IMG/VR virus record: IMGVR_UViG_2609459791_000004
Location: 1 to 19,614 of that record
Strand: one strand, 5' to 3'
Length of the DNA: 19,614 nucleotides
Source of the DNA: a virus
Lineage: Duplodnaviria; Heunggongvirae; Uroviricota; Caudoviricetes
Below, in pieces: positions 2,402 to 19,614 of this stretch. Under the pieces are notes generated by a model. The model had not been told where the DNA came from, made no database searches, and saw nothing but the letters and a program-made list of their open reading frames with translations. The translations under genes and the position numbers were made by a program. How positions within the stretch are numbered: position 1 is the first letter of the stretch; each line of letters opens with the position of its first letter.

Positions 2402-2477
2402 GGCCCTTTAGCTCAGTGGTTAGAGCAGGCGACTCATAATCGCTTGGTCGCTGGTTCAAGTCCAGCAAGGGCCACCA
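2402..2477 (+). tRNA. tRNA with CAU anticodon, Ile2 (lysidine) type rather than Met
   Basis: 76-nt cloverleaf read directly: acceptor GGCCCTT/AAGGGCC, D-arm GCTC-AGTGGTTA-GAGC, anticodon loop CTCATAA (anticodon CAT), T-arm GCTGG-TTCAAGT-CCAGC, discriminator A and encoded CCA. Matches my recollection of E. coli ileX/ileY rather than metT or initiator tRNA. The ORF-track frame starting at 2384 reads through it and is an artifact. Confidence 0.88.
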
Positions 2478-3556
2478 AATCATTATTTACGTATCAGGAA
2501 GAGTTAAGGGTACAAGGGGTACTGGCGGACGTTAAAGCCCAGCCCTCCCATATCAGCAAGCCGCTGATGCAACGTATTGAATACTTCAGCAGCCTGGGCA
2601 GGCCAAAGGCTTATTCCCGCTATTTGCGTGAGACGATTAAGCCATGTCTGGAACGACTGGAGCATGTACGCGACAGTCAGCTATCCACTTCTTTTCGCTT
2701 TATGGCAAGCCATGAAGGGCTGGACGGCCTGCTGATCCTGCCTGAAATGAGTCAGGATCAGGTGAAACGCCTGTCTACTCTTGTCGCTGCGCATATGAGC
2801 ATGTGTCTTGATGCCGCTTGTGGTGATTTGTACGCCACCGATGATGTTAAGCCAGAAGAAATCCGCAAGACATGGGAAAAGGTGGCAGCAGAAACCCTGC
2901 GACTGGATGTCATACCGCCTGCGTTTGAGCAACTCCGCCGGAAAAGAAACCGCCGTAAACCCGTGCCCTATGAACTCATTCCGGGTTCGCTGGCGCGTAT
3001 GTTGTGCGCCGACTGGTGGTACCGGAAATTATGGAAGATGCGTTGCGAATGGCGGGAAGAGCAGTTGCGTGCTGTTTGCCTGGTCAGCAAAAAAGCATCT
3101 CCCTATGTCAGCTATGAAGCCGTGATGCATAAACGTGAGCAGCGCCGTAAGTCGCTGGAGTTTTTCCGTTCTCATGAACTGGTGAACGAAGACGGCGACA
3201 CGCTGGACATGGAGGATGTGGTAAACGCCAGCAGCAGCAACCCTGCGCATCGCCGCAATGAGATGATGGCCTGTGTTAAAGGTCTGGAGCTTATCGCGGA
3301 AATGCGCGGTGACTGCGCCGTTTTCTACACCATCACCTGTCCGTCACGTTTCCATTCCACGCTAAATAACGGCAGGCCCAACCCGACCTGGACAAATACG
3401 ACGGTAAGACAAAGCAGTGATTATCTGGTCGGCATGTTTGCTGCATTTCGTAAGGCGATGCACAAAGCCGGATTGCGCTGGTATGGCGTGCGGGTGACCG
3501 AAGTGCTGGAATGGCGGTATAAAGCGATTCAGAGAAGCGGGGCCAACGATGAGTGA
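2478..3556 (+). pseudogene. phage rolling-circle replication protein (P2/186 gene A-like) fragment, abutting the tRNA and running into the tape-measure start
   Basis: Open frame continues from the tRNA to 3556 with no credible start or RBS; first in-frame ATG is at 2567. Contains [14 protein letters not shown], which resembles Rep motif 1 of the phage GPA family from memory, but no HUH or active-site Tyr region follows. Its stop overlaps the tape-measure ATG, so the 3' part may derive from another gene (for example E'). Identity is from recalled motifs only. Confidence 0.35.
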
Positions 3557-5901
3557 TAACAACCTGCGTCTGCAGGTCATTCTTAATGCGGTTGACAAGC
3601 TCACCCGCCCATTTCGATCTGCGCAGGCCAGTTCAAGAGAACTGGCTGCTGCTGTCAAAAAATCCCGCGATGCAATAAAGCAGCTTGATCAGGCCGGGAG
3701 CAGTCTGGACAGCTTCCGAAAGCTGCAGGCAGAAAATCAGAAATTAGGCGACAGGCTGAACTATGCCCGCCAGCGTGCAAATTTGCTCAGTCAGGAACTG
3801 GGAGCGATGGGGCCGCCTTCGCAACGTCAGGTTGTTGCTCTGGGCCGTCAACGGCTGGCTGTTCAGCGCCTGGAAGAACGCCAGAAAAAGCTGCAGCAGC
3901 AGACGGCGCTTGTGCGTGCTGAACTGTACCGGGCGGGAATTTCTGCGAAAGACGATGCGGGAGCAACTGCCCGTTTAGCCCGTGAAACATCACGTTATAA
4001 CCAGGAACTTTCGAAACAGGAGGCGCGGCTGAAGCGACTGGGGGAAGCTCAGCGCAGGATGAATGCAGCGCGTGCCAGTTATGCCCGTTCGCTGGAGGTG
4101 CGTGATCGTATTGCAGGTGCCGGAGCCACCACCACGGCTGCAGGGCTGGCAATGGGCGCACCAGTGATGGCGGCAGTAAAAAGCTATACCAGCATGGAAG
4201 ATGCCATGAAAGGTGTGGCAAAGCAGGTCAATGGTCTGCGTGACGATAATGGCAACCGCACTGCACGTTTTTATGAAATGCAGGATGCCATCAAGGCTGC
4301 CAGCGAACAGTTGCCGATGGAAAACGGTGCGGTGGATTTCGCTGCACTGGTTGAAGGTGGTGCGCGCATGAACGTCGCAAACCCTGACGACAGTTGGGAA
4401 GATCAGAAACGTGACCTGCTGGCCTTCGCCAGTACGGCAGCAAAGGCGGCAACAGCCTTTGAGCTGCCAGCGGATGAACTGTCAGAAAGTCTGGGGAAAA
4501 TCGCCCAGCTCTACAAAATCCCCACCCGCAATATTGAACAGCTCGGTGATGCGCTGAACTATCTGGATGATAACGCCATGTCGAAAGGGGCAGACATCAT
4601 TGATGTGATGCAACGTCTGGGCGGTGTGGCTGACCGTCTGGATTATCGTAAAGCGGCGGCGCTGGGTTCCACCTTCCTGACACTGGGCGCTGCGCCAGAG
4701 GTTGCAGCCAGTGCAGCAAACGCGATGGTGCGTGAATTGTCCATTGCCACCATGCAAAGCAAGAGTTTCTTTGAAGGGATGAATCTGCTGAAACTCAATC
4801 CTGAAGTGATTGAAAAGCAGATGACGAAGGATGCGATGGGAACCATCCAGCGCGTGCTGGAGAAGGTAAACGCGCTGCCGCAGGACAAGCGCCTGTCTGC
4901 CATGACTATGTTGTTTGGTAAAGAGTTTGGCGATGACGCGGCGAAACTGGCAAACAACCTGCCGGAACTGCAGCGTCAGTTAAAACTGACAGCGGGCAAT
5001 GATGCGCTCGGCTCCATGCAGAAAGAATCCGACATTAACAAGGATTCACTTTCTGCGCAGTGGTTGCTGGTCAAAACCGGAGCGCAGAACACCTTCAGCA
5101 GCCTGGGCGAAACGCTGCGCCAGTGCAGCGTTCGAACCGCTTAAGCCCGTGTTCCAGTGGATTGGCGACAAAGTGCAGGCGCTGTGGGGCTGGTTTACTG
5201 ATCTGCTGACGCCCGTTAAGTCGACCTCTGCCGAACTGCAGAGCGCAGCGGCAATGGGGCGGCGATTCGGGGAGGCACTGGCGGAAGGGCTGAATATGGT
5301 CATGCATCCGCTGGACTCCCTGAAATCCGGCGTTTCCTGGTTGCTGGAGAAGCTCGGCATTGTCAGTAAAGAGGCCGCAAAGGCAAAACTGCCGGAAAGC
5401 GTGACGCGTCAGCAACCTGCGACGGTGAATGCAGACGGTAAAGTGATGATGCCATCGGGTGGTTTTCCATCATGGGGATATGGCTTTGCGGGGATGTATG
5501 ACAGCGGCGGGGATATCCCGCGCGGGCAGTTTGGCATCGTCGGTGAAAACGGGCCGGAAATTGTTAACGGCCCGGCAAATGTGACCAGCCGGAGAAATAC
5601 AGCTGCACTGGCTGCCGTTGTTGCCGGAATGATGGGCGTTGCTGCCGCGCCAGCAGAGCTTCCACCGTTGCACCCCTTGGCACTTCCCGCGAAAGGTGGA
5701 GAAGCAATTGTGAGTCGCGCAGCCACTGTGCCGCTCGTTCAACGGATTGAGGCACCGACGCAGATCATCATTCAGACGCAGCCAGGACAAAGTGCGCAGG
5801 ATATTGCGCGGGAGGTGGCACGCCAGCTTGATGAACGTGAACGCAGGCTGAAGGCAAAAGCCAGGAGTAACTACAGCGATCAGGGGGGATACGACGCATG
5901 A
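3549..5901 (+). pseudogene. P2-like tail tape measure protein (gpT), interrupted by a +1 frameshift near 5100-5145
   Basis: Two overlapping ORFs, 3549-5144 (531 aa) and frame +1 ending at 5901, together give about 784 aa, close to P2 gpT size. N-terminus [22 protein letters not shown], coiled-coil Q/R/A/L-rich composition and a Gly/Ala-rich C-terminus are typical of tape measure proteins. Frame 1 stops at 5142-5144 while the downstream frame carries ...AAFEPLKPVFQWIGDKV. Confidence 0.75.
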
Positions 5902-6383
5902 TGATGGTGCTGGGATTGTACGTGTTTATGCTGCGCACCGTTCCGTATCAGGAACTGCAGTATCAACGCAGCTGGCGACATGCGGCAAACAGTCGGGTAA
6001 ACCGACGTCCGTCCACGCAGTTTCTGGGACCGGAAAACGACATGCTGACGCTTTCCGGTGTTCTTATGCCGGAGATAACAGGCGGCAGGCTGTCGTTGCT
6101 GGCACTGGAGCAGATGGCAGAACAGGGGAAAGCGTGGCCCCTGATTGAAGGCAGTGGCACGATTTACGGTATGTATGTGATTGAGGGACTGAATCAGACT
6201 AAAACGGAGTTTTTCCGCGATGGTATGCCGCGCCGGATTGAGTTTACCCTGTCGCTCAAACGGGTGGATGAATCCCTGTCCGATATGTTCGGTGATCTCA
6301 GTGCGCAGCTGAATAATTTGCAGGATACGGCAACGTCTGCCTTAAGCGATATCAGTAAAACGGTGGGAGGGCTGCTGTCGTGA
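5898..6383 (+). CDS. P2-like tail protein U
   Basis: 161-aa ORF whose ATG overlaps the tape-measure stop (ATGA). Size and position between T and D match the P2 T-U-D order. Confidence 0.75.
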   Translation: MMMVLGLYVFMLRTVPYQELQYQRSWRHAANSRVNRRPSTQFLGPENDMLTLSGVLMPEITGGRLSLLALEQMAEQGKAWPLIEGSGTIYGMYVIEGLNQTKTEFFRDGMPRRIEFTLSLKRVDESLSDMFGDLSAQLNNLQDTATSALSDISKTVGGLLS

Positions 6384-7480
6384 ATTTCAGCTCTGAACTG
6401 CTTAACAAAGGCAACAAAACTCCGGCATTCAGCATCAGTATTGAAGGCAGGGATATCACTACTGTGCTGGACAACCGCCTGATGGGGCTTACGCTGACGG
6501 ATAACCGGGGCTTTGAAGCGGACCAGCTTGATCTGGAGCTGGACGACGCCGATGGAAAAATCGTGCTGCCGCGCCGTGGTGCGGTCATTACGCTGGCGCT
6601 GGGCTGGAAGGGGCAGCCGCTTTTCCCGAAAGGGGCATTCACGGTGGACGAGATTGAACACACTGGCGCACCGGACCGCCTGACTATCCGGGCGCGAAGT
6701 GCTGATTTTCGTGAAACACTGAATACCCGCCGTGAAAAATCGTGGCATAAGACCACCGTCGGGGAAGTGGTGAAGGAAATAGCCGCGCGGCACAAGCTGA
6801 AGATGGCACTGGGTAAAGACCTGTCGGATAAGCCAGTGGAGCATATAGACCAGACTAATGAGAGTGACGGCAGTTTTCTGATGCGGCTGGCGCGACAGTA
6901 CGGTGCCATCGCGTCGGTGAAAAATGGCAATCTGTTATTCATCCGGCAGGGGCAGGGCAAAAGCGCCACTGGTAAACCTCTGCCAGTGATCACTATCACA
7001 CGCAAGGACGGCGACAGTCACCGATTTACCCTGGCAGATCGCGGAGCTTACACGGGCGTAATTGCCAGCTGGTTGCATACCCGCGAACCCGCGAAGAAAG
7101 AAAGCACCGCGGTGAAGCGTAAGCGCAGGACTAAGAAGCAGAAGAAAGAGCCGGAAACGAAGCAGGGCGATTATCTGGTGGGTACGGATGAAAACGTGCT
7201 GGTACTTAATCGCACCTATGCTAATCGGAGTAACGCCGAACGGGCAGCGAAAATGCAGTGGGAACGCCTGCAACGCGGCGTTGCGTCATTCTCGCTACAA
7301 CTGGCGGAAGGGCGGGCAGATCTCTACACGGAAATGCCAGTGAAAGTCAGTGGCTTTAAACAGCCGATAGATGATGCGGAATGGACCATTACGACTCTGA
7401 CGCATACCGTCAGCCCCGATAACGGTTTTACAACCAGTATTGAACTCGAAGTGAAGATTAATGATCTTGAAATGGAATAA
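6380..7480 (+). CDS. P2-like late tail protein D
   Basis: 366-aa ORF with GTG start overlapping the U stop. Position directly upstream of ogr matches the P2 order, and size is close to P2 gpD. Confidence 0.78.
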   Translation: MNFSSELLNKGNKTPAFSISIEGRDITTVLDNRLMGLTLTDNRGFEADQLDLELDDADGKIVLPRRGAVITLALGWKGQPLFPKGAFTVDEIEHTGAPDRLTIRARSADFRETLNTRREKSWHKTTVGEVVKEIAARHKLKMALGKDLSDKPVEHIDQTNESDGSFLMRLARQYGAIASVKNGNLLFIRQGQGKSATGKPLPVITITRKDGDSHRFTLADRGAYTGVIASWLHTREPAKKESTAVKRKRRTKKQKKEPETKQGDYLVGTDENVLVLNRTYANRSNAERAAKMQWERLQRGVASFSLQLAEGRADLYTEMPVKVSGFKQPIDDAEWTITTLTHTVSPDNGFTTSIELEVKINDLEME

Positions 7481-7548
7481 AGTGTTCTCAATATTGATAT
7501 TTTTTGTATCATTACAATGATTCTGATAGCAAAGGTAGGGATCTGGAT

Positions 7549-7767
7549 ATGATGAATTGTCCAAAGTGTGGTCATGCGGCACACACAAGGAGCAGTTTTC
7601 AAGTAACTGAAAGCACCAAAGAGCGTTACTGCCAGTGCCAAAATATTAACTGCGGGAGCACTTTTGTTACTCATGAAACAGTGGTCCGGTTTATTGTGAC
7701 ACCCGCACTGATTGCTACTGCTCCTCCACATCCATTGCCAGGTGGTCAGGGGCATATGAATTTTTGA
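7549..7767 (+). CDS. ogr: Ogr/Delta-family zinc-finger late transcription activator
   Basis: 72-aa product MMNCPKCGHAAHTRSSFQVTESTKERYCQCQNINCGSTF with the CxxC-N22-CxxxxC zinc finger of P2 Ogr. GGTAGGG Shine-Dalgarno about 8 nt upstream of the ATG at 7549. The ORF-track start at 7504 (TTG) is probably too long. Confidence 0.85.
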   Translation: MMNCPKCGHAAHTRSSFQVTESTKERYCQCQNINCGSTFVTHETVVRFIVTPALIATAPPHPLPGGQGHMNF

Positions 7768-7774
7768 GAAAGAG

Positions 7775-7797
7775 AACCTGCTACGGCAGGTTTTTAT
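7775..7797 (+). terminator. rho-independent terminator downstream of ogr
   Basis: Hairpin CCTGC-tacg-GCAGG followed by TTTTTATT, starting 8 nt after the ogr stop. Confidence 0.7.
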
Positions 7798-7907
7798 TCA
7801 TCTGGGATCTCACCCGTTTCAAGAAAATGTATAAAGCCAGGCTCATCTATGATGATTGTGCCTTTCATCCTGGCTGCCGATACTTTTGATGGGCCTGCAT
7901 TGTAACC

Positions 7908-8285
7908 TCAACAGAGCATCTGAAGGCTTTGGGTTATAGAGGTTCTTACCGTTAATCCTTGTTCATTCGCCTTATCAACCAATCTTTCTTTATCTGCTTT
8001 CTTAAATCCGGTGAAACACACATCGAATGTATTTTTTTTCGGACCAGACTGCTTAGTGAGATGTGAGTAGCTTTCGGGGAGGAATGACGCGCATTCCTGA
8101 ATGGCTTGTTCTGGTGAATCGTACTGTTTAAGAATGCGGTCTTTTCGGAAGGTTTTTATTCGATCGGTGTTCTTACAAATGCCCTGTATATGATTTTCGC
8201 TATAACTGATGCTCTGTATAGAGTGAACAGCGATACGACCATTTGCATTGATGTAAACAAAGTGAAGTTCTTCCATGTGAAACAT
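7908..8285 (-). CDS. hypothetical protein with WYL-like N-terminal region and a truncated BRCT-like C-terminal segment
   Basis: 125-aa ORF in AT-rich DNA. N-terminal FVYINANGRIAVHSIQSIS...RIKTFRKDRI resembles the WYL-domain RxFRxDRI signature. C-terminal FDVCFTGFKKADKERLVDKANEQGLTV looks like the start of a BRCT fold but stops early. No clear Shine-Dalgarno. Confidence 0.35.
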   Translation of the reverse strand: MFHMEELHFVYINANGRIAVHSIQSISYSENHIQGICKNTDRIKTFRKDRILKQYDSPEQAIQECASFLPESYSHLTKQSGPKKNTFDVCFTGFKKADKERLVDKANEQGLTVRTSITQSLQMLC

Positions 8286-8363
8286 CTTTGCATGATTTCA
8301 AGATGGTGACAGGCAAGATGGACGCAAAAGTCTGTCGCCATTTTGCCGCCACTACCAAAGAAA

Positions 8364-8398
8364 AAGGGGCTACGCTTTCACGTAACCCCTTGATTTAT
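8364..8398. terminator. bidirectional hairpin flanked by A/T runs
   Basis: GGGGCTACG-ctttca-CGTAACCCC (9-bp stem, one mismatch) with AAAAA on the 5' side and TTGATTTATTT on the 3' side. Confidence 0.4.
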
Positions 8399-8421
8399 TT
8401 GGTGGGCTGGCGGAGTCTGAA
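8399..8421 (-). other. candidate attR core of the P4-like element: degenerate copy of the 3' end of the tmRNA gene ssrA
   Basis: Plus strand TTGGTGGGCTGGCGGAGTCTGAA resembles the reverse complement of the ssrA 3' end as I recall it (TGGTGGAGCTGGCGGGAGTTGAA) with two 1-nt gaps and one mismatch. It lies just outside the crr-like iterons, at the end of the element opposite an IntA-like integrase. From memory only, no alignment run. Confidence 0.3.
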
Positions 8422-8583
8422 TAACTCACGTAAATATCTGTTAATAGGTGGCTTTAACCAATTCAACTTTCTTCGGTATACCTAAGCGTATACCAATGGC
8501 GATTTGTTGCAGCGCTTCCTGTGATTAAGAGAACCTGTTTTTGGATAAATCACATCTAGAAAAAAACTTTTTTTTAGAAAAAC

Positions 8584-8675
8584 TGTTCACACTGTTCACT
8601 GTGCATTTTTATTTATAAAATTCATGACATTACGGGGTGAATGGTTGGTGAACAGTGAACACTTTACTGTTCATT
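8584..8675. repeat. iteron cluster resembling P4 crr (cis replication region), with adjacent A/T tract
   Basis: TGTTCAC at 8584-8590 and 8594-8600; GGTGAACA at 8647-8654; GTGAACA at 8655-8661; degenerate copies at 8636-8642 and 8668-8675. Both orientations present. Preceded by AAAAAAACTTTTTTTT at 8561-8580. TGTTCACC is, from memory, the P4 type I iteron bound by alpha. Confidence 0.6.
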
Positions 8676-8722
8676 TTACTGGCTCACAGAGGATTACCAT
8701 ACGAATCCTTAAGGACTTGCGG

Positions 8723-9523
8723 TCATTTTCGCCATTCTCTTGTTCCACTAATGTTAGACATCACATCGTCGAAGTTGAATTTTGGATCTGTATCTGGATT
8801 AAATTGGCCATTTTTACTTTCATAAATGAAATTTTGACAATCACAATTGCTGTCACTTTCGCCGCAGTCCATGCATTCAGCATTACAGTAATCTATCATC
8901 CTATCAATGGCATCCCAGGGCTCATAATCGTAGTCGAAATGTCCATAACCACTACTGCCATAAATTCTTCCATTTATGAAGTCGTCAATGTCACTAATAT
9001 TTCTTAACTGGCAGTTGAAAATATTTGATATAGGTCTAAGGACTACCCTCGCATAATCAAATTTGTATAAGGGCATTTCAAAGAAAACCTTACCATTATC
9101 AGCTTTAAGACTGTGAAAAGATAAATCTCCATATTTTTCTATAAGTTCCTTATATCTTTTTTTATCCAGCTCAACATGCTTGAATGAGTTGTTAATCGCA
9201 TCCAAAAGAGAAAACTTATTGCTAATGTGCTTACTCCCATCCACTTCATATCGTTTATCGAAGCTTTTAATAAAATCAGTTCTGGTTATTTCAGTTTTCT
9301 TTTTTGCAATAAATATCATGTAATCAACAACGTGAGCCAAGATTGCGTTAAATGAAAATACATGATGAAGCTTCAGTGTATTGTTGTTTAGTATTGTGAA
9401 AAACTCTTCAGATGCTGGGGTTAAAACATTATCCAAATAAGAAAGGAGATAGCTTGCATCTTTTTCATCGGAGCTGCCTGTGTATAGTTCTATTGCGCTT
9501 CCTTGATGGTTGAGATTTATCAT
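8723..9523 (-). CDS. hypothetical Cys-rich protein, cargo ORF between the crr-like iterons and alpha
   Basis: 266-aa ORF in an AT-rich block inside the GC-rich satellite backbone. C-terminal cluster CNAECMDCGESDSNCDCQ suggests possible metal binding. No family recognised. Confidence 0.55.
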   Translation of the reverse strand: MINLNHQGSAIELYTGSSDEKDASYLLSYLDNVLTPASEEFFTILNNNTLKLHHVFSFNAILAHVVDYMIFIAKKKTEITRTDFIKSFDKRYEVDGSKHISNKFSLLDAINNSFKHVELDKKRYKELIEKYGDLSFHSLKADNGKVFFEMPLYKFDYARVVLRPISNIFNCQLRNISDIDDFINGRIYGSSGYGHFDYDYEPWDAIDRMIDYCNAECMDCGESDSNCDCQNFIYESKNGQFNPDTDPKFNFDDVMSNISGTREWRK

Positions 9524-9689
9524 TAATAACCGCCAGTAAGTTCTATTAATCTGGGAAAATTAACCGTGATAAATGAAGTATAGCGACTTCCTTCATTGCT
9601 ATGCAATCATACGATTGTTTCATTACATTGAATCAATTCTCACTCAGAACTGTATCTTAAATTGTGCATAATGTCTGGACTGAGAGTGC

Positions 9690-9715
9690 AAAAAAAAGAC
9701 CGGCGATTGCCGGTC
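9690..9715 (-). terminator. rho-independent terminator downstream of alpha
   Basis: On the minus strand, hairpin GACCGGC-aatc-GCCGGTC followed by T8, about 10 nt after the alpha stop. Confidence 0.7.
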
Positions 9716-9723
9716 AGGTCAGG

Positions 9724-12057
9724 TTATTTCGCTAGGGGGTCATCACATTTCGGCAGCCAGTCGGCGTTGCTTTCCTCTCTTAACGCGAGATTGGTTTGTA
9801 TGCCCTGATTTTTTCGGCGCTTCTCATAACTTAGCCCGTACTCTTTCAGCATGGCTGGCAGCCCCTTACCGAACATGGTGAGGCTGAGAGTATTCCTGTA
9901 GCCGTGGGCTTCCATATACGCCAGATAGGCATGATACAAATACAGGCGCGGCTGACGCGGAATGATGTTGGCATTGCCAATATACATGCCCTCAGGCTCC
10001 GGCAGTGCCTCCAGATAGCCACAAAAATCAAAGGCCGGATCGGCGTCGCGTTTGATGCTGAGTGCCTCGTCGGAGTTCTGCTGTGACTGGAGCAGGGCAC
10101 GCGCTGTCATCGGGTTGCTGAACTTCTGCATAAGCTGGCGCACAATCACGGCCAGCTCGCGCGCAATTTTATCCCTGAGCTGCGGGTCGCGTTCCTCCGG
10201 GGCAATCTGCTCAGGGAAGTGGATGATTACCCGGCGACGGGAAACACCGCCGCTGCGGTCGGTAAAGCGCATCGGGTTATTGTTCACGGCCAGAATCACC
10301 GCAGGAATATGGGTGGAGTACGCATCCTTGTATTTCGGGTCAACGGAGACCGCATCCCCGCCGGTGATGGCCTTGAGTCCTGCCCCGTCACCGCTCCATT
10401 TCTCCTGGTCAGGCAGACGGATTAGCGAGAAGCCAATCAGCGCAGCACGTTCACGCGGCGACTCCAGCGTTTCGATAGTGGCCGATGTGGCGTTATCTTC
10501 CCCGGCAAGCATGGTCGCAATTTCGGCCAGAATACTTTTTCCGCTGCCACCGGGTCCGGTCACCTCAAGAAAGAGCTGCCAGTCGTAACGGTTCGCCAGC
10601 ACCATAAACAGCGCGGCCAGAATCACGTCGCGTTTTTCCGGTTTGCCACCGGCGGCGCGGTCGAGCCAGCGCCAGAACTCCGGGGCGTGGGTTTCCAGCG
10701 TTTCCCCCTCTACCGGTGGGGTAAAATCGACATCACAGAGTGTGCGCAGCCAGTGCGATTTATGGTGTGGGCTGAAAGTACCCGTGGCGGTATCGAGTAC
10801 TCCGTTACGAAAGCCAATCAGACGCCGTGCCGGGGCATCCTGCTGCGGAATAATCAGTTTCAGGGTCTCCACCACTGAGGCAATTTTCCCCGACGAGAAC
10901 GGTGCGCGCAGACGCTGGAACAACCCGGCCACGTCGCGGGCAAAATCCGACGGCGGAATGATTTTCCATATCCCGGCCTCATAGCGGGACAGGAGCTGGC
11001 CGTTTGCATCCACGGCCAGCGCTTCGCCGTAATGCTCATGCACCCGCATCGCCTTTTCACTGGTGCTCATGGCGGTAAATTCTGCCTCGCTCATGGTAGC
11101 GAAAGGGCTGTCAGCCGGTGGCCGGATGGCGTCATAAATCGCTTTTCGTGTCGCCTCTTCGCCTTTCTGAACAAACGCATCATTCCAGTCACCGAATACC
11201 GGCGGCAGGGCAACAACGCCTTCACAGGCTTCTGCGGCCGCGGCGGCTTTACTCTGACCATCGCCGTTCAGGTCACGGTCGGCGGCGAGGACAATCTGAC
11301 AGGCCGGGTGTTTCTGGCGGACAAGGCTCGCCAGAGAAAGGAGGTTCACGGACGACAGTGCCACCATGACGGTTTCACCGGTCAGGTGATGCACGGTGAG
11401 CGCGGTCGCATAGCCCTCCGCTATCCACAGGCGTTTTCCGGCCTGTTTCTTCCCTTCGATGACATGACATGCTCCTTTAACCTGACCGCCCTTCAGGGTG
11501 CGTTTGAGACCGTCAGAATTGATGAGCTGAAGGTTTACCAGCGCGCCGGTATCGTCATACAGCGGGACAACCACATCCCCGGCGCGGAACGTCACGCCGC
11601 CGGTTTTATGCATGACCGTAAGTACCGGACATTCCCGGTCGGGGAAGCCCTTGCGGGTCAGGTAGGCGTTGCCGCTGGCAGGTTGGGTTTTCTCCATGAG
11701 CCTGACGGTCAGTGCGGCCGCCGCTTTGCGGTCAGCCTCCGTTTCAGCCTCTGCGGCCGCAATCACTTCGGGGGCAACCGGTGGCAGGTTGCCGGTCACG
11801 GCGTCCACCCTCCCGGCAGCCTCTGATGCGGTCACGCCAAACACTTTCTCGACCAGCTTAAGACCGTCACCCGCACCGCACTGGTTACAGAACCACGTCC
11901 CGCGTCCCTCTTTATCGTCAAAGCGGAAACGGTCAGAGCCGCCGCACATCGGGCAGGCCTGATGCCGGTTTTTCATGACCTTCACACCAAGCGCCGGAAG
12001 AATGCGCGGCCAGTGGCCGCACGCCTGTTTTACCGTCTCTGTTACGTTCATTTTCAT
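9724..12057 (-). CDS. P4 alpha-type bifunctional primase-helicase
   Basis: 777 aa, the same length as P4 alpha. N-terminal zinc-binding CPMCGGSD...FCNQC, primase motif EGYATA, Walker A GPGGSGKS. GAGGGAG Shine-Dalgarno upstream of the ATG at 12057. Confidence 0.9.
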   Translation of the reverse strand: MKMNVTETVKQACGHWPRILPALGVKVMKNRHQACPMCGGSDRFRFDDKEGRGTWFCNQCGAGDGLKLVEKVFGVTASEAAGRVDAVTGNLPPVAPEVIAAAEAETEADRKAAAALTVRLMEKTQPASGNAYLTRKGFPDRECPVLTVMHKTGGVTFRAGDVVVPLYDDTGALVNLQLINSDGLKRTLKGGQVKGACHVIEGKKQAGKRLWIAEGYATALTVHHLTGETVMVALSSVNLLSLASLVRQKHPACQIVLAADRDLNGDGQSKAAAAAEACEGVVALPPVFGDWNDAFVQKGEEATRKAIYDAIRPPADSPFATMSEAEFTAMSTSEKAMRVHEHYGEALAVDANGQLLSRYEAGIWKIIPPSDFARDVAGLFQRLRAPFSSGKIASVVETLKLIIPQQDAPARRLIGFRNGVLDTATGTFSPHHKSHWLRTLCDVDFTPPVEGETLETHAPEFWRWLDRAAGGKPEKRDVILAALFMVLANRYDWQLFLEVTGPGGSGKSILAEIATMLAGEDNATSATIETLESPRERAALIGFSLIRLPDQEKWSGDGAGLKAITGGDAVSVDPKYKDAYSTHIPAVILAVNNNPMRFTDRSGGVSRRRVIIHFPEQIAPEERDPQLRDKIARELAVIVRQLMQKFSNPMTARALLQSQQNSDEALSIKRDADPAFDFCGYLEALPEPEGMYIGNANIIPRQPRLYLYHAYLAYMEAHGYRNTLSLTMFGKGLPAMLKEYGLSYEKRRKNQGIQTNLALREESNADWLPKCDDPLAK

Positions 12058-12071
12058 CGTTATTTTCTCCC

Positions 12072-12392
12072 TCAGTGCATGACAGGCGATGTGATATGAC
12101 GGGCACAGAGCTCATCCATCACGGCCAGCCCGAGGAAGGACAGCGACGGGGCAGCTTTCAGTGGTCCGGCTTCCATTAAATCTTCCAGCAGTGCACAGGC
12201 AATCTGGCGGCCTTTTTCCTCGCCGTGCTGGCGCAGGTAGAAGCCCTCCAGCTCGGCGGCAATGGCGCTTTCCAGCGCGTCAAGGGTGAGGTGTGGGTAG
12301 CGGCACTGGCGTTCGCACAGGGTCAGCCATGCACAGGCCACGGCGCGCCGATATAGCGCGGCGCGTAATACGGGCGGTAATGGCTTTTTCAT
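12072..12392 (-). CDS. P4-like left-operon protein (orf upstream of alpha)
   Basis: 106-aa ORF immediately upstream of alpha; its start overlaps the stop of the preceding small ORF by 4 nt. GC-rich backbone composition. Confidence 0.5.
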
Positions 12393-12616
12393 ACGTTGCC
12401 CTCCCCGGTCAGCCAGCGCTGATTGCAGCGCTCTACCACGCCGTCGAGCTGGGCGGTCATAAGGTAAATCACGGAGGTGAGTTGCGACTGCTGTGCAGGG
12501 TCACGACGAACGGTCGCGCAGTCCTGCACCTGCATCAGCTCGTTGACGAGCTGGCCGACGTTGCGCATGTGCTCCAGACATTCGAGGTCACGGGCGCTAA
12601 TCGTGGTGTGTCTCAT
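12389..12616 (-). CDS. small P4-like left-operon protein (possibly Eps or Icd-like)
   Basis: 75-aa ORF with 4-nt overlaps to both neighbouring ORFs (12613-12616 and 12389-12392). Identity is guessed from position only. Confidence 0.4.
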
Positions 12617-12807
12617 GCACGCACCTCCGCAACCGGCAGGCGGCCAGCGAACGAGAGGACGTAATCGCGAACAAGGGAACGACGTGCAGCGTGTTCATCA
12701 CCGGCAACGGTGCGGAGCATACAGATACGGGGTTTACGGTCTGCACGACGAACGGCGGCAAACACAAAAACAAACTGCGGGTGTGACGGGGTGAGGATAG
12801 TAGCCAT
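12613..12807 (-). CDS. small P4-like left-operon protein (64 aa)
   Basis: Internal ATG of the long ORF-track frame, with GGAGG 8 nt upstream; stop overlaps the next ORF. The rest of the 185-aa frame is low-complexity and covers the leader region. Confidence 0.35.
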
Positions 12808-12829
12808 GATGGCAGCCTCCATTGAGTAG

Positions 12830-13015
12830 CGGTTACTGCTACCACCGGAAACGCCAATTTCACTGGTGGCAGCCCGAACGGGGTTGGCGTAACCGGCCTC
12901 AATGGATACCGGCCAGCCCGAAGGCTGCCCCGCCCGGACTACCATTATCTTGCTGGAACCATGGTGTATAAAAAGACACCACAGCCCGGAAAATGGGTGT
13001 GCCTGAGCTACGACG
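12830..13015 (-). ncRNA. candidate P4-type immunity leader (CI RNA and seq-like repeats)
   Basis: Noncoding stretch between the leader terminator and the first small ORF. Repeated AGCCCGAA (12871-12878 and 12915-12922) and GGCGTT(T)CC elements, plus hairpin CAGCC-cgaa-GGCTG. Position matches the P4 cI region. Exact RNA ends not determinable here. Confidence 0.25.
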
Positions 13016-13038
13016 AAAAAAAAGACGCACGGCGCGTC
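13016..13038 (-). terminator. leader terminator downstream of the PLE-like promoter
   Basis: On the minus strand, hairpin GACGC-gccgt-GCGTC followed by T8, about 60-80 nt downstream of the predicted start. Confidence 0.4.
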
Positions 13039-13101
13039 TGGTGTCGCCATTGAGTTTCGCGGAACGCCAATTCCGGCTGTCGATTTTGCGACAGCGGGAA
13101 A

Positions 13102-13131
13102 ACTATACCTGGAAACGGCGAAAAGAAGCAA
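13102..13131 (-). promoter_or_regulatory. sigma70-like promoter, candidate P4 PLE
   Basis: On the minus strand, TTGCTT-N18-TATAGT. A 7-bp stem-loop (GCTGTCG/CGACAGC) lies at the predicted transcript 5' end. Confidence 0.4.
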
Positions 13132-13166
13132 GCCAGAAAAAGGGTCTGTTTGCTGAACGGTCATCA

Positions 13167-13433
13167 TCATGCGTCATAGCCCCGGTTGCGTTCGGCAATA
13201 CGATCCGCCATCCATGCTGTGATTTCAGACTGCGCCCACGCCACGTTTTTTCCGCCCAGGCTGATTTGTTTCGGGAAAGCCTCGCGGCTGATGAGGTCGT
13301 AAATGGTTGACCGGGACAGGCCGCACAGATGCATCACTTCAGGCAGGCGGATAAAGCGCTCCTGAACGGCATCAGAAACCGGCATCAGTGGTGCGGCAGG
13401 GGCAGAAGACGGGGAAGAAAAAGCGGTGTGCAT
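13167..13433 (-). CDS. AlpA/Vis-family DNA-binding regulator or excisionase
   Basis: 88 aa with [32 protein letters not shown], typical of AlpA/Vis HTH proteins. GAGGT Shine-Dalgarno upstream. Confidence 0.8.
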
Positions 13434-13699
13434 CGGGCTACCTCATAATGTCCATACAGTGCCGGTCATGTCCGTCCGGCTTCGGGTAGCTCCTTATTAT
13501 GTCTATATTTTTCCTCAGGTCATGTGAGATTTTCGGGGAAACAAACATTGACTTTTCGCTCTGGCAAACAAAGACAAACGCTGGCAAAGATATGCAAATC
13601 ACTGCATTACAATGCAGCAATTTCTATTGCTTTTAGTTATACATTTTTCATTTTTAATCGAAATAAAATCTAAGTGGTTTGGACAGAGCAAAACAGGAG

Positions 13700-13804
13700 G
13701 GTGAACAGTGGTGAACAGAGGGTGAACAGTCAGACCCTCAACTGTTCACCCTTTATCTTACTGTATTACTTATATTTTTATTTAAGGTGAACAGTGGTGA
13801 ATAG
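13700..13804. repeat. iteron cluster resembling the P4 replication origin
   Basis: GGTGAACA at 13700-13707, 13710-13717, 13721-13728 and 13786-13793; inverted TGTTCACC at 13743-13750; degenerate GGTGAATA at 13797-13804. Includes an 11-bp inverted repeat GGGTGAACAGT-N10-ACTGTTCACCC. Flanked by A/T-rich DNA. Confidence 0.6.
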
Positions 13805-13880
13805 TTATAAGTAAAAAAACAAACGGTGAGTAAGGTTTTGCTGAGACCTTTCTCTGGCCAGCCGGGTTTTAAGTGTTGTT

Positions 13881-13898
13881 TGTGCCAGAACTGCCACA
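13881..13898 (+). promoter_or_regulatory. TGT-N12-ACA element, candidate Delta/Ogr activator site of the sid promoter
   Basis: TGTgccagaactgccACA centred about 81 nt upstream of the sid ATG. P2/P4 late promoters are known to carry a TGT-N12-ACA dyad around -55. Confidence 0.45.
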
Positions 13899-13970
13899 AC
13901 TGCAATGAATCGAGATGTTGTGTGATGAAGGGCAGAATCATTTCAGGTTGAATAAACGGAGAGCCTGAAC

Positions 13971-14714
13971 ATGAAACCCGAAACAGTCATTACCGCCCTG
14001 CAAGACGTTGCCGCCAAGCAGTACGCAGAGAACAGCCAGCACGTCACCGACAAGCTGAGCGTATTTACTGCGGCAAGAGACACCCACGCGGCCAGCATGC
14101 AGGTACTGAAAGAGATTGATACGTCCATTCAACGCTGTAAGCAGGAGCGGCAGACCGCTCTCGATGAGAGCGCAGAAGCGGAGCAGGACTGGCGCAGCCG
14201 CTTTCGCACCCTGCGCGGCAGTCTTACCCCTGAAATGAAAGCTGAGCACAGCAGGCGTATCGCCAGCCGCGAGCTGGCCGACGAGTTCACCAGCCTGATT
14301 GCCGAGCTGGAGGCCGACCGGACGCGCGCCATGCTGACTGCCTGCTCCACCGGCAATAAATACCTTTCAGCGCATGAAGATGCCTTTACCGCTTATGCCG
14401 GTGCGGAATGGGCTCAGGCTGTCAATGCGGTTCCTGTCACCCTCATCCGCGCTTTCCTGCTGCGCATTCGTGCCCTCGAAATGAAGGGAGAAAGCGCCCC
14501 GCAGTCCGTGGCCACTGGCGAGCTGCGCGATGCGCTGAGTCGTCAGGGCAGCCTGTATCACTTCGATATGACGCAGGAGCCGGTGTTGTCCGTGACGGGC
14601 ATGCACCGGCCGCAGATTACAGGCGTGGATACGGAGCTGTTACGCAGCCCTGCGAAGAGAATGATGCTCGCCAGAAAGCTGGCTGAAAATGGCGAGACAG
14701 AAGCGGAGGGGTAA
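13971..14714 (+). CDS. sid: P4 Sid-like capsid size determination protein
   Basis: 247 aa, alpha-helical charged composition, first gene of the sid-delta-psu block. GGAGAG Shine-Dalgarno. Confidence 0.75.
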   Translation: MKPETVITALQDVAAKQYAENSQHVTDKLSVFTAARDTHAASMQVLKEIDTSIQRCKQERQTALDESAEAEQDWRSRFRTLRGSLTPEMKAEHSRRIASRELADEFTSLIAELEADRTRAMLTACSTGNKYLSAHEDAFTAYAGAEWAQAVNAVPVTLIRAFLLRIRALEMKGESAPQSVATGELRDALSRQGSLYHFDMTQEPVLSVTGMHRPQITGVDTELLRSPAKRMMLARKLAENGETEAEG

Positions 14715-14716
14715 GC

Positions 14717-14935
14717 ATGTTTCACTGCCCGTTCTGCAAAACCAGCGCGCATTCCCGCACCAGTCGCTATCTGTCCGATAACGTCAAACAGCGCTATCAC
14801 CAGTGCATGAACATCGAGTGCTCGGCCACGTTCCGCACGCTTGAATCCATCGACGGGGTTATTCGTTCACCGGTAACAGAGCCGGTCATCCCTGTACCCG
14901 CACCGGCGGCCACCGTTAACCGTGCCGGTGCGTAA
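14717..14935 (+). CDS. Delta (Ogr-family zinc-finger late activator), single-domain form
   Basis: 72 aa MFHCPFCKTSAHSRTSRYLSDNVKQRYHQCMNIECSATF with the same Cys spacing as Ogr. Starts 3 nt after the sid stop. Confidence 0.8.
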   Translation: MFHCPFCKTSAHSRTSRYLSDNVKQRYHQCMNIECSATFRTLESIDGVIRSPVTEPVIPVPAPAATVNRAGA

Positions 14936-14963
14936 GCACGGCCAGTCATCAGGAGAAACATAC

Positions 14964-15527
14964 GTGACCACACTGACGCTACAGAAAGCCTTTGAGACCT
15001 GTCAGGCAAACAAATCCGCCTGGCTGCAACGCAGGGAAGAACTGACGCAGGCCGAACAGGCATACCGCGAACAGCTTGCCGGCAGCGGGCACAGCGGCCG
15101 GAGCCTGCAAACGCTACGTGAAATTATTGACGTGAAAAAATGGGAAATTAATCAGGCTGCCGGTCGCTATATCCGCTCGCATGAGGAGGTGCAGCGCATC
15201 AGCATCCGCGACCGATTAAATGATTTTATGCAGGCGCACGGCGCGGAGCTGGCCGCCGCCCTCGCCCCGGAGCTGATGAATTATCCCGGGCAACACCCCG
15301 CCATTCAGCGCTGCGCCATGCAGCACTCACTCGACTGTCTGCGTGAGGCGCTACAGGTCTGGCTGGCCGTTGGTGAAAAAATTAATTATTCGGCGCAGGA
15401 CAATGACATTTTAACGGCCATCGGATTCAGGCCTGACGCGGCTTCGCGCGATGATAGCCGTGAAAAATTCACACCTGCACAGAACCTGAATTACACCCGC
15501 CGTCGTGCAGAACTGGCTGCGCAGTAG
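14964..15527 (+). CDS. psu: P4 Psu-like polarity suppression protein
   Basis: GTG at 14964 preceded by AGGAG with 9-nt spacing, giving about 187 aa, close to P4 Psu. Last gene before the cos-like region. Confidence 0.75.
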   Translation: MTTLTLQKAFETCQANKSAWLQRREELTQAEQAYREQLAGSGHSGRSLQTLREIIDVKKWEINQAAGRYIRSHEEVQRISIRDRLNDFMQAHGAELAAALAPELMNYPGQHPAIQRCAMQHSLDCLREALQVWLAVGEKINYSAQDNDILTAIGFRPDAASRDDSREKFTPAQNLNYTRRRAELAAQ

Positions 15528-15573
15528 TCCTTTCAAAAATCCCCAAAAATCCCGCCATTTTTACGTAAAAAAG

Positions 15574-15600
15574 CCATGCATGCATAAGGTGCATGGTTTT
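15574..15600 (+). terminator. rho-independent terminator after psu
   Basis: Hairpin CCATGCA-tgcataagg-TGCATGG followed by TTTT. Confidence 0.6.
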
Positions 15601-15693
15601 GCATGCGCTTTACCGACACTGTATTCCCCGCCAGCGCCAGCACTGGCGCGCCCTGAGGCCGGTCATGCGCCTGCATTAAAAGCGCCCCCTTAA

Positions 15694-15718
15694 GCGGGCA
15701 GGCGGGGCGGGGAGAGCA
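15694..15718. other. candidate cos site
   Basis: GCGGGCAGGCGGGGCGGGGAGAGCA resembles the P2/P4 19-nt cohesive end as I recall it (GGCGAGGCGGGGAAAGCAC). Sits between psu and the cargo hotspot, where P4 cos lies. Confidence 0.3.
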
Positions 15719-15896
15719 TTGCGCGCCATAGGCTCTTATCATTTATTTGATATATCTTTTTAGAAACTGCGAAACAGACTAAAAAATCATGATCATCCCT
15801 TTGATTTGTAGGTAGAATTCGATCAATAGTATGAGTTGATTGGATGCTGATACAAAAGCTATTTAACTATACATTTGATGTCATGGAGGGGTTATA

Positions 15897-16370
15897 TTGT
15901 TTAAGCGGAAAAATAAAAATTCAGTTCCTTCATTTACACAAGATTTTCATTATCTTACTGCCCTCATTCAGCATTTAGGTGCTCATGAGAAATGGAATAG
16001 CAGAACACCAAGGAATATAGCCGACAGTCTTGGGATGGATATAAATGAAGTCGAAAGAGTTTTGCGGTCATACCCGGCATTCTTCAGGCGGTCGGGAAAC
16101 CTTAGTACTCAAGGAGAACCGCTTTTCATGATTCATTTGCGATATGCGAGAAGAAGACGAAATGCCGATGATGGTTCACGAGAGTCCCCACCTGTTGAAC
16201 CAGCTGAACTAGGTATGATGCTAGATCTTGTTACTAAAATGATTGCAGTGGAAGAGCAAGGTAGGCGGTTGTCAGTTGATGAAAGAAATAACAGTCTTAA
16301 ATTGTGGTTGGCGATATTGCTTGCAGCTATTTCAACATTAACCACCTTGGCTGTAGCATATATAAAATGA
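15897..16370 (+). CDS. small C-terminally membrane-anchored protein with a possible HTH-like segment; first gene of the hotspot operon
   Basis: 157 aa with TTG start 7 nt after GGAGG. C-terminal hydrophobic helix LKLWLAILLAAISTLTTLAVAYI. Segment RNIADSLGMDINEVERVLRS resembles a helix-turn-helix. AT-rich. Confidence 0.55.
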   Translation: MFKRKNKNSVPSFTQDFHYLTALIQHLGAHEKWNSRTPRNIADSLGMDINEVERVLRSYPAFFRRSGNLSTQGEPLFMIHLRYARRRRNADDGSRESPPVEPAELGMMLDLVTKMIAVEEQGRRLSVDERNNSLKLWLAILLAAISTLTTLAVAYIK

Positions 16371-16377
16371 GGTTCAT

Positions 16378-18384
16378 ATGAAATTGATTTCATTCAGGAT
16401 TAAAAATTATCGCTCAATTTTTGATAGTGGGATAATAACGACTGAGAAATTGACGGCAATACTTGGTAGAAATGAAAGTGGAAAGACCAATTTATTATCC
16501 GCACTTTATAGCCTAAAACCAGCAGAGGAATTTAGTGCCCTTGATAAAATTAAAAACTTTCCAAGAAATAGAAGGTTAGAAGAGTGCGATGACTCGACTA
16601 GAGTTGTGGAGTCTACATGGGAGTTAACAGACTCAGAATTAGTTGAGTTAGGACGCATCTACCCAAGAGCAAAAAACAGTAAACAGGTAACTGTAACTAG
16701 AAATTATAGCAAATCTAGACAAGTTGGATTCTCAAAAATTGAACCATTTGACTATGATGCAAATGCGATTAAGAAAAAATTCGGCAAAGTCTTGCTGAAT
16801 ATTGAAAATGCTATAGACGATAATGAATATGATGGAGTAGATAAAGAAACTATTCTAATTCAGTTTCGCAATCTAATCTCTGAGATTTCTCCTGATGACA
16901 ACGAGGGAGTTTTTTCTTGGGCTGGTAAAGTTGGTGAGAAAATTAATGAATTGAATAAGGGTTTTGATAAATATGATTTAGTAATAAAAGAAGATAATGA
17001 GACTTTCATTGACTCTATGAGCGAGTTGATAGTTGGAGTGAAAAATGATGCAGCTTTAAGTCAAAAGGCCAGGGATTGGGTTGTTCAGACCATGCCTGTA
17101 TTTATTTACGTTGATGAATATCCCGAGCTTGAAGGACATCAAAATATTGGGCAATACTTCGAGAGGAAAAGACTTAACAATCAAAGTAAAGCTGATGTGA
17201 ATTTTGATAAGCTATGTAAAGTTGCAGGCATTAAGCCAGAGCAATTGCACGAAAACAAAAATGATCCTGAGGTAAGGAATCAGCTAGCTAACCGTGCAGG
17301 GGCTGTTGTAACACAGGAAATTCATAGATTATGGAAAGATAAACCGCTAAAAATTCGATTCAATCTTGATAATGATTATTTTCATACCTATGTTTCTGAT
17401 CATAACAGTGGATATGATGTTGAAGTAAATCTCGATGAAAGAAGTCGCGGTTTTAAATGGTTCTTCTCTTTCTATATTACATTTTGTGCAGATACACATG
17501 GGGGGGATGCTGAGAATGCAATTATTTTGTTAGATGAGCCCGGCCTATACTTGCATGCTAAATCTCAAGGGGATTTGTTAAATCATCTAATTGATGACTT
17601 TGCTAATCAAATTATATATACAACACATTCACCATTCTTAGTTCCTGTGAAGGATATTTCTGCTATAAAAACTGTTTCGATCTCTGAAGAGGAAGGAACA
17701 AAAGTCACTAATGATCCTAGTGGTGATTCTACAACTTTATTCCCTCTCCAGGCAGCGTTAGGATATGATATTGCTCAGTCGTTATTTATTGGCTCTCATA
17801 ATTTGATTGTAGAGGGTGTAACTGATTATTGGTATATATCGGCATTATCTGAATACCTCATTTCTAAGGGCATGACCGGGCTGAATGACAACATTACAAT
17901 CACTCCTGCTGGAGGAGCACAGAAAGTATCTTACTTAGTATCTTTGCTATCATCCCAAAATCTTAATGTTGTTCTTCTTTTAGACGATGAGAGAAATAGT
18001 CGTCAGACCTCTATAGAAATAGTAAATGGAAAACTGATAGGGCAGAAAAATATTGTCTTTGTATCAGAGGTTCAAAGTGGGGATGTTACAGAGGTTGATA
18101 TTGAGGATCTGTTTGATAAAGAAATGTTCAGAAGACTTATATCAGAGGCCTATTTTCCAGATGTAAGTGAAGAATTAAAGTTTAATGACAAAGTTCCGAG
18201 GATAACTAAGCAAGCTGAAGAGGCTTTGAAACTGCACAAAATGAAATTTGTGAAAGCTAAACCAGCTAGGTTGTTCTTATCTAAATTGAAGGATGCGAAT
18301 GGTGATTTTCTATCTCTTGAAGTAATGAGGAAATTCGAGGCTTTATTTAAAATAATTAATAAAAAGATCTCATCCAAGAAATAG
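16378..18384 (+). CDS. OLD-family ABC-type ATPase fused to a Toprim nuclease domain
   Basis: 668 aa. Walker A GRNESGKTN near the N-terminus after an IKNYRSI beta-strand motif; signature-like DERSRGFKWFFSF; Walker B AIILLDEPGLYLH; His-switch YTTHSP. C-terminal Toprim-like IVEGVTDYWY and LLLDDE. GAGG Shine-Dalgarno 5 nt upstream of the ATG, 7 nt after the upstream stop. Confidence 0.8.
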   Translation: MKLISFRIKNYRSIFDSGIITTEKLTAILGRNESGKTNLLSALYSLKPAEEFSALDKIKNFPRNRRLEECDDSTRVVESTWELTDSELVELGRIYPRAKNSKQVTVTRNYSKSRQVGFSKIEPFDYDANAIKKKFGKVLLNIENAIDDNEYDGVDKETILIQFRNLISEISPDDNEGVFSWAGKVGEKINELNKGFDKYDLVIKEDNETFIDSMSELIVGVKNDAALSQKARDWVVQTMPVFIYVDEYPELEGHQNIGQYFERKRLNNQSKADVNFDKLCKVAGIKPEQLHENKNDPEVRNQLANRAGAVVTQEIHRLWKDKPLKIRFNLDNDYFHTYVSDHNSGYDVEVNLDERSRGFKWFFSFYITFCADTHGGDAENAIILLDEPGLYLHAKSQGDLLNHLIDDFANQIIYTTHSPFLVPVKDISAIKTVSISEEEGTKVTNDPSGDSTTLFPLQAALGYDIAQSLFIGSHNLIVEGVTDYWYISALSEYLISKGMTGLNDNITITPAGGAQKVSYLVSLLSSQNLNVVLLLDDERNSRQTSIEIVNGKLIGQKNIVFVSEVQSGDVTEVDIEDLFDKEMFRRLISEAYFPDVSEELKFNDKVPRITKQAEEALKLHKMKFVKAKPARLFLSKLKDANGDFLSLEVMRKFEALFKIINKKISSKK

Positions 18385-18389
18385 GAACT

Positions 18390-18417
18390 ATGCCCGTCAG
18401 CATGACGGGCATGTTTT
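18390..18417. terminator. hairpin terminator between the convergent hotspot operon and integrase
   Basis: ATGCCCGTC-agcat-GACGGGCAT (9-bp perfect stem) followed by GTTTT, between stops at 18384 and 18421. Confidence 0.6.
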
Positions 18418-18420
18418 AGC

Positions 18421-19614
18421 TTAGTGTATGTTTCTTACCTTTATACCCCACCATTCCATCAGTGATTTTCGTTGTTCTAAGTAAGTGGAACGGTTATATG
18501 CCTTTCTAACTTCATTTTTATCGGAATGAGCCAATGCCGCTTCGATTACATCCGCATTAAAGCCTTGTTCATTTAGGGTTGTACTAGCAATAGATCTTAA
18601 ACCATGCGCAACAAGCTTCCCACCGTAACCAATTCTCTTCAACGCGGCATTAGCTGTTTGACTATTCATCGGTTGCTTTGGATCATTTCTGCTCGGAAAA
18701 ATATGTTCACGATGAGCGCTGATTGGCTTCATCACTTCCAGAATATCTAATGCCTGTGTCGATAGGGGAACAATATGCTCACGCTTGGCCTTCATCCGCT
18801 CGGCTGGAATAGTCCAGAGCTTCGCTTCGAGATCGATCTCTGCCCAACGAGCACCGGAGGCTTCAGAAGGGCGCACAAGGGTCAGAAGTTGCCACTCAAT
18901 AAGACAACGCGTCGGAACAGACAGATTAGACATAACCAAAGAACGCATCAGCTTCGGTAATTCTTCTGGCCGCAGAGTCGGCATGTTTTGTTTTTTTGGT
19001 TTCTCAAATGCCATACCAATTCCTGACGCAGGGTTGGCATCAATCAAACCGGTGTTAACCGCATAAATCATGATCTCGTTTATGCGCTGCACCAGTCGAC
19101 GAACAGTCTCAAGCGCTCCACGAGCCTTGATTGGCTCAAGGGCTTCAACCAGAGTTCGGGCTTTGATTTGCTGAACGGGGATCTCACCGATGGCAGGGAA
19201 TACATCTTTCTCCAGTGAGCGCCAAATGTCTTTTGCGTAATCAGGAGTAACGCTTTTGCTTTTGAGCTGGAACCAGTTAGCGGCGACCGTTGAAAAAATA
19301 CTGTCCAGCTCGATTTGCTGCTGTTCCTCTGCAACTTCAGCCTGAATTTGCGGGTCGATTCCGTTGGCTAGCAAGGCTAGGTAATCCGCTCTCAACCCTC
19401 GGGCATCAGCAAGCGAAAGGGCAGGGAAGGCACCGAGCCCCATCATTGTCCGCTGCTTTGTTGTCGGACGTTGATAACGAAAACGCCAGAGTTTTTTCCC
19501 GCTGGTTTTCACTATCAGGAAAAGCCCATCGCCATCATGCAGCGTTAGATCCTTCTCCAACGCTTTAGCGCGCAGAACTTCGGTGTTGGTCAGGGGGCGT
19601 GTTGTCCGTGCCAC
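18421..19614 (-). CDS. P4-type tyrosine integrase (IntA-like)
   Basis: 397 aa. N-terminus ARTTRPLTNTEV...DGDGLFLIVKTSGKKLWRFRY resembles CP4-57 IntA. C-terminal catalytic residues in HGLRSIASTTL and VRKAYNRSTYLEQR. Apparent GTG start sits on the last three bases of the window, so the true start may lie just outside. Confidence 0.88.
   Translation of the reverse strand: MARTTRPLTNTEVLRAKALEKDLTLHDGDGLFLIVKTSGKKLWRFRYQRPTTKQRTMMGLGAFPALSLADARGLRADYLALLANGIDPQIQAEVAEEQQQIELDSIFSTVAANWFQLKSKSVTPDYAKDIWRSLEKDVFPAIGEIPVQQIKARTLVEALEPIKARGALETVRRLVQRINEIMIYAVNTGLIDANPASGIGMAFEKPKKQNMPTLRPEELPKLMRSLVMSNLSVPTRCLIEWQLLTLVRPSEASGARWAEIDLEAKLWTIPAERMKAKREHIVPLSTQALDILEVMKPISAHREHIFPSRNDPKQPMNSQTANAALKRIGYGGKLVAHGLRSIASTTLNEQGFNADVIEAALAHSDKNEVRKAYNRSTYLEQRKSLMEWWGIKVRNIH

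Follow-up and report, generated by a model that had tools for sequence, protein, structure and literature searches.

Two iteron clusters flanking the alpha gene of a P4-like satellite prophage of Escherichia coli as its probable ori and crr

On either side of the gene for the primase-helicase initiator alpha, a P4-like satellite prophage of Escherichia coli carries a cluster of short repeats. The satellite lies in a 19,614-nucleotide stretch of viral DNA (IMG/VR record IMGVR_UViG_2609459791_000004, positions 1 to 19,614), which is referred to here, at its full length, as the window. A first-pass annotation made from the letters of the window had proposed that the two clusters correspond to the origin of replication (ori) and the cis required region for replication (crr) of P4, and that the element is a replication-competent satellite rather than a decayed remnant. 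Are these clusters replication elements, and do they belong to an element that could still replicate? Our answer is that they are bipartite cis-acting replication elements, an ori and one crr unit, of a P4-like satellite prophage that is probably able to replicate, and we assign this reading a probability of about 0.83.

The repeat in question is the octamer GGTGAACA (reverse complement TGTTCACC), the type-1 iteron, which was counted on both strands of the 19.6-kb window. Six exact copies were found versus 0.54 expected, at 13700, 13710, 13721, 13786 and 8647 on the plus strand and at 13743 on the minus strand, and none of 200 dinucleotide-preserving shuffles reached this number. Five of them, with a 7/8 copy (GGTGAATA at 13796), make up the cluster at 13700-13803, and the Poisson probability of at least five octamers in 94 bp is 1e-14. 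The cluster at 8584-8675 contains the sixth exact copy and five variants that match at 6-7 of 8 positions. The 7-mer GTGAACA occurs 12 times versus 2.27 expected, with 9 of the 12 copies inside the two clusters; the 19.2 kb of the window beyond them contains no octamer and three 7-mers. Both clusters contain the octamer in both orientations and adjoin A/T tracts (A7-C-T8 at 8559-8574 and an AT-rich spacer at 13753-13785), where GC content falls to 0.34-0.37, and alpha (9724-12057, minus strand) sits between them. Thus, the positions of the clusters (13700-13804 and 8584-8675), the two orientations, the A/T tracts and the flanking of alpha had all been described correctly in the first-pass annotation. 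A literature search with the octamer sequence returned only unrelated papers. The components of the two clusters are as follows.

13697-13806, plus strand: ori core, six type-1 iterons and a conserved AT-rich spacer
13700-13707, 13710-13717 and 13721-13728, plus strand: ori iterons
13743-13750, minus strand: ori iteron
13786-13793 and 13796-13803, plus strand: ori iterons
8555-8680, plus strand: crr, a single unit with six type-1 iteron-like sites, homologous to the 120-bp crr repeat of P4
8584-8591, minus strand: crr variant TGTTCACA
8593-8600, minus strand: crr variant TGTTCACT
8636-8643, plus strand: crr variant GGTGAATG
8647-8654, plus strand: crr exact octamer
8654-8661, plus strand: crr variant AGTGAACA
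8668-8675, minus strand: crr variant TGTTCATT

The right-hand cluster, located between the alpA/vis gene and sid, turned out to be a close counterpart of the P4 origin. In the P4 record X51522, "ori type 1 repeats" are annotated at 9310, 9320, 9331, 9353, 9396 and 9406, and this annotation bears out the P4 iteron sequence that the first-pass annotation had assumed. The window has the same six type-1 repeats as P4 9310-9413, in identical order, orientation and spacing (10, 11, 22, 43 and 10 bp). From the first iteron to the last, the two sequences align almost base for base, including the AT-rich spacer of about 35 bp, and diverge in the flanks. This spacer (13753-13785) is nearly identical to that of P4 and is conserved in 63 relatives; it is presumed to be the unwinding region, and the GC content of the surrounding interval 13500-13799 is 0.37. 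About 100 bp from the first iteron, at the distance at which P4 has three "type 2" ori repeats, the window has four (G/A)CAAA repeats phased by 10 bp (13561-13598, plus strand). Their sequence differs from that of the P4 repeats, and they are probably the positional counterpart of these.

The left-hand cluster also aligned to P4, with some qualifications. In X51522, crr ("cis required region for replication") consists of two 120-bp direct repeats with five type-1 repeats each, and the crr of the window aligns to both of them at 72% identity. The A-tract/T-tract is shared, as is the order in which the sites occur (a pair, then a gap, a group of three and one inverted site), and the P4 crr repeats are about as degenerate as the sites in the window. 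However, there is one unit in the window and there are two in P4; a search for a second unit across the whole window, including 9524-9690, found none. The assignment of this cluster to a P4-type crr therefore stands as regards its homology, with the reservations that it is a single unit with one perfect octamer, and that a cargo gene lies between it and alpha. It lies towards the att end, on the downstream side of alpha, with about 1 kb between it and the alpha terminator; ori is about 5 kb away, compared with 4.7 kb in P4.

The initiator expected to act on these sites is intact, as stated in the first-pass annotation. Alpha has the same length as P4 alpha (777 aa) and is 84% identical to it over 774 aa without gaps. 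Searches against Pfam recovered every domain: a primase zinc ribbon, Toprim, D5_N/SF3 helicase and a C-terminal winged-helix origin-binding domain. The latter is known from P4 alpha (PMC2777425), and residues 671-770 match its solved structure (PDB 1KA8) at 76% identity (E 5e-46).

To place the clusters in a wider context, we compared 80 alpha loci from other Enterobacterales genomes, which represent more than 30 genera and have alpha proteins 57%-94% identical to that of the window; ori-like and crr-like segments were sought in them by nhmmer with the ori and crr of the window as queries. Clusters of GTGAACA occur at the same two places in these loci. Where the flank upstream of alpha was at least 3 kb long (64 loci), 58 loci had an ori-like segment at a distance of 1.5-2.7 kb upstream of the gene; downstream of alpha, 67 of 77 loci had at least one crr-like segment. 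The ori-like hits upstream of alpha were all on the strand of alpha, and so, among the matches listed, were the crr-like ones. In the 967 kb of related loci, the octamer has a density of 6.4 per kb inside ori-like or crr-like DNA versus 0.047 per kb outside, a 138-fold enrichment in the homologous segments. Moreover, the mean identity to the window was 0.89 in the iteron columns of ori versus 0.53 in its other columns (63 distinct sequences), and 0.81 versus 0.40 in the case of crr (106 distinct sequences). Selection on protein-binding sites would be expected to conserve iteron columns above their flanks in this way.

The layout of crr varied among the 70 loci that had enough downstream flank. 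A single proximal unit was found in 22 of them and two units, as in P4, in 16; a further 10 had a proximal and a distal unit, 12 had only displaced units, and no unit was detected in the remaining 10. Single or displaced crr units are thus frequent, also in relatives that look intact.

How the two clusters may work can be proposed by analogy with P4, on the basis of its GenBank annotation, the study of its origin-binding domain (PMC2777425) and the work of Calendar, Lanka and colleagues. The C-terminal winged-helix domain of alpha would bind the type-1 iterons (core ACTGTTCACC) at both ori and crr, and the alpha molecules bound at the two places would interact over about 5 kb. The AT-rich spacer of ori would then be opened, and the SF3 helicase and primase of alpha would start bidirectional theta replication with host Pol III, with Cnr restraining the copy number. 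P4 replication is not known to need DnaA, DnaB, DnaG or a Rep-family protein. As the core genes are all intact, replication of the element upon excision or infection by a helper is probable, and replication competence would fit an intact element of the correct size.

The nearest analogy by mechanism is with iteron plasmids of the R6K type, in which the pi protein mediates looping between origins. They resemble the system proposed for the window in having clustered short iterons beside an AT-rich region, an initiator encoded by the element itself, and a second, distant iteron cluster that is needed or acts in cis. In contrast to their initiators, alpha is an unrelated fused primase-SF3 helicase-winged-helix protein, and the window falls outside those plasmid families.

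Several observations weigh against this interpretation. Only one of the crr sites is a perfect octamer, and crr is both single and displaced by 1 kb from alpha; in the older P4 literature, a single crr repeat is reported to suffice and its distance to be flexible. The sixth ori site, GGTGAATA, departs from the octamer; the majority sequence of the relatives at this position is AGTGAATA, the T of which is common to GGTGAATA. For the right att and ssrA, which fall beyond the end of the window, strain MB20 is the sole source. Finally, the window contains no usable helper, the adjacent P2-like prophage being a remnant.

If these points are given full weight, the clusters could be relics: the island would be fixed, domesticated or decaying, its ori and crr would be non-functional, and it would be kept only for its cargo or defence genes. 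In support of that, the ssrA-ileY region around it is heavily rearranged and its neighbor is a degraded P2-like prophage; a few E. coli strains have near-identical copies at this site, which could mean vertical descent; and its crr is down to one unit that is split from alpha. On the other hand, the core open reading frames (ORFs) of the satellite are all full length without frameshifts, its size would fit the P4 capsid, and a putative copy of att, a cos-like site and the CI RNA are all present. The iterons agree with the family consensus at conserved positions, and the state of crr is shared with the intact-looking relatives described above. We therefore consider decay an unlikely explanation.

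It is less probable still that the repeats serve mainly as operators, for example of the late promoters that diverge between alpA and sid, or as arm sites of the integrase near att, instead of in replication. The ori cluster does lie in an intergenic regulatory region between divergent operons, and crr is only about 160 bp from the att core. However, one motif occurs at two sites whose common neighbor is alpha, and crr stays beside alpha across many genera, while the integrase of the window is 36% identical to that of P4 and has a different att. Moreover, the arm repeats of P4 carry an annotation of their own and differ in sequence, whereas its type-1 repeats are assigned by annotation to ori and crr. 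Chance clustering or base composition, suggested by the AT-rich, low-complexity character of both regions, is refuted by the shuffles and the Poisson probability, by the spacing identical to that in P4, and by the 138-fold enrichment and conserved iteron columns of the related loci.

The reading of the clusters as ori and crr is right but ordinary, as P4-type ori and crr are well known and occur in about a quarter of E. coli genomes. Of 5426 complete E. coli genomes, 1284 contained ori-like DNA; among the matches listed, none had an annotated feature there. The result confirms textbook P4 biology in a P4 relative, allows ori and crr to be annotated in P4-like satellites, and makes it possible to test from sequence whether a satellite has retained its replication elements.

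What, then, separates crr from alpha? A low-GC cassette fills the interval from the last crr iteron to the alpha terminator.

9698-9715, minus strand: alpha terminator (GACCGGCAATCGCCGGTC followed by T8), conserved with t-alpha of P4
8680-9687, minus strand: cargo cassette of 1.0 kb, 32-38% GC
8723-9523, minus strand: ORF of 266 aa within the cassette, of an uncharacterised family with homologues

E. coli 23AR0998 represents the empty site, as its homologous att-crr DNA (89% identical) abuts the alpha terminator. The limits of the 1.0-kb cassette are set by the points at which the window loses homology to 23AR0998, immediately past the final crr iteron (8679), and regains it, at the terminator (9688). 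The 266-aa ORF had no match in Pfam, PHROG or PADLOC.

Cargo at this place is not peculiar to the window. Of 70 related loci, 22 carry 0.7-3.1 kb of diverse low-GC cargo, placed either between crr and the alpha terminator or in the gap separating two crr units (downstream of alpha in L013, L014, L015, L031, L055 and others; also L021, L030, L032, L042, L056, L058, L060 and L079). In other loci, the cargo at the same place encodes an OLD-like ATPase, Mrr, PIN and DUF3800, a Pua-like-metallophosphatase or FRG proteins. A minor "primase-att" defence hotspot of P4-like satellites, with 7% of their defence systems, has already been reported (PMC13586616), and the cassette with the 266-aa ORF falls within it. 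The term "crr" is absent from PMC8628076 and PMC13586616, and the sole modestly new point here is the placement of primase-att cargo relative to crr, exactly between crr and the alpha terminator.

From the position of the cargo in the window and in these 22 of 70 loci, one may tentatively suggest that crr is more than a replication element and also marks the minor primase-att cargo hotspot of P4-like satellites, a possibility that we consider doubtful. If it is true, the 120-bp crr repeats could serve as recombination anchors for the exchange of defence cassettes, and a crr still functional 0.7-3.1 kb away from alpha would limit how looping between ori and crr can be modelled. In that case, the 266-aa protein of the cassette would become a new candidate for a single-gene defence system.

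The element as a whole is a P4-like satellite prophage of an E. coli chromosome, with the 3' end of ssrA as its insertion site and a size of about 11.4 kb, compared with 11.6 kb in P4. All of the seven core genes are present (int, psu, delta, sid, alpA and ash, plus alpha); this is the core of the P4-like satellites of Enterobacterales, which have been catalogued by SatelliteFinder (PMC8628076, PMC10085698, PMC13586616). The ends and the psu-int region of the element contain the following features.

8399-8421: putative satellite-distal att, a degenerate version of the 3' end of ssrA (TGGTGGGCTGGCGGAGTCTGAA versus TGGTGGAGCTGGCGGGAGTTGAA in ssrA)
15701-15719, plus strand: cos-like site GGCGGGGCGGGGAGAGCAT, matching the opening 19 bases of the linear P4 record at 16/19 positions
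15897-18384, plus strand: cargo in the psu-int hotspot, encoding a 157-aa protein and a 668-aa OLD-family ATPase-TOPRIM protein
18421-19614, minus strand: tyrosine integrase of 397 aa, 36% identical to P4 Int

The integrase start codon forms the end of the window. In E. coli MB20, which is 99.9% identical, an intact ssrA lies about 185 bp further, and the size of the element follows from the position of ssrA in this strain. At the other end, 8399-8421 is the junction of the satellite with a P2-like remnant; strain MB19 has ssrA itself at the position of this att, and homology with MB20 and 23AR0998 begins there. A phage-record annotation of 8000-8422 as a full ssrA gene was rejected, since only the last approximately 22 nt are ssrA-like in comparison with MB19 and MB20, and the real ssrA lies beyond the integrase; ARAGORN and Rfam found no tmRNA in the window. 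Integrase and att site both differ from those of P4, which integrates at leuX. The stretch of the P4 record that the cos-like site resembles presumably represents the P4 cohesive end. In the psu-int hotspot, the GC content of the cargo is 33-37%, versus 55-64% in the core genes. Its 157-aa protein had no matches, and the 668-aa protein combines AAA_15 with an OLD-type TOPRIM, its best PADLOC matches being Old, AriA and GajA.

Between alpha and the cos-like site, the gene order of the satellite is as follows.

9724-12057, minus strand: alpha, primase-helicase initiator of 777 aa
12072-12392, minus strand: homologue of P4 ORF106 (DUF5375, 106 aa), 90% identical
12389-12616: ORF of 75 aa (phrog_10110), in place of P4 epsilon and orf151
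12613-13170, minus strand: immunity region, Ash/Icd-like ORF
12862-12949, minus strand: C4/CI antisense RNA in the immunity region
13018-13095, minus strand: isrK-type RNA in the immunity region
13167-13433, minus strand: AlpA/Vis-type HTH protein, homologue of P4 ORF88, 72% identity
13971-15527, plus strand: helper-exploitation operon with sid (13971-14714), delta (14717-14935) and psu (14964-15527)

We take the ORF106 homologue to be cnr, the copy-number regulator. The delta gene encodes a single Ogr/Delta module of 72 aa, whereas the Delta protein of P4 has 166 aa and matches the delta product of the window in two separate parts. P4 epsilon, orf151 and gop/beta/cII have other genes in their place in the window.

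The DNA to the left of the satellite begins with a ygaQ-like pseudogene, which is followed by a tRNA gene (2402-2477) and by the P2-like prophage remnant (2478-8398), in tandem with the satellite and beyond the att copy. The remnant comprises a fragment of gene A fused to the end of E (A'::E'), a frameshifted T (tape-measure), U, D, ogr and a BRCT/ligase-like pseudogene. Because ogr is kept but no other P2 late genes are present in the window, the remnant cannot act as a helper. The tRNA gene, with the anticodon CAT, was called tRNA-Met by ARAGORN and is tRNA-Ile in RefSeq (MB19); from its position beside the ygaQ-like gene, we assume it to be ileY. It is overlapped by an ORF at 2384-3556.
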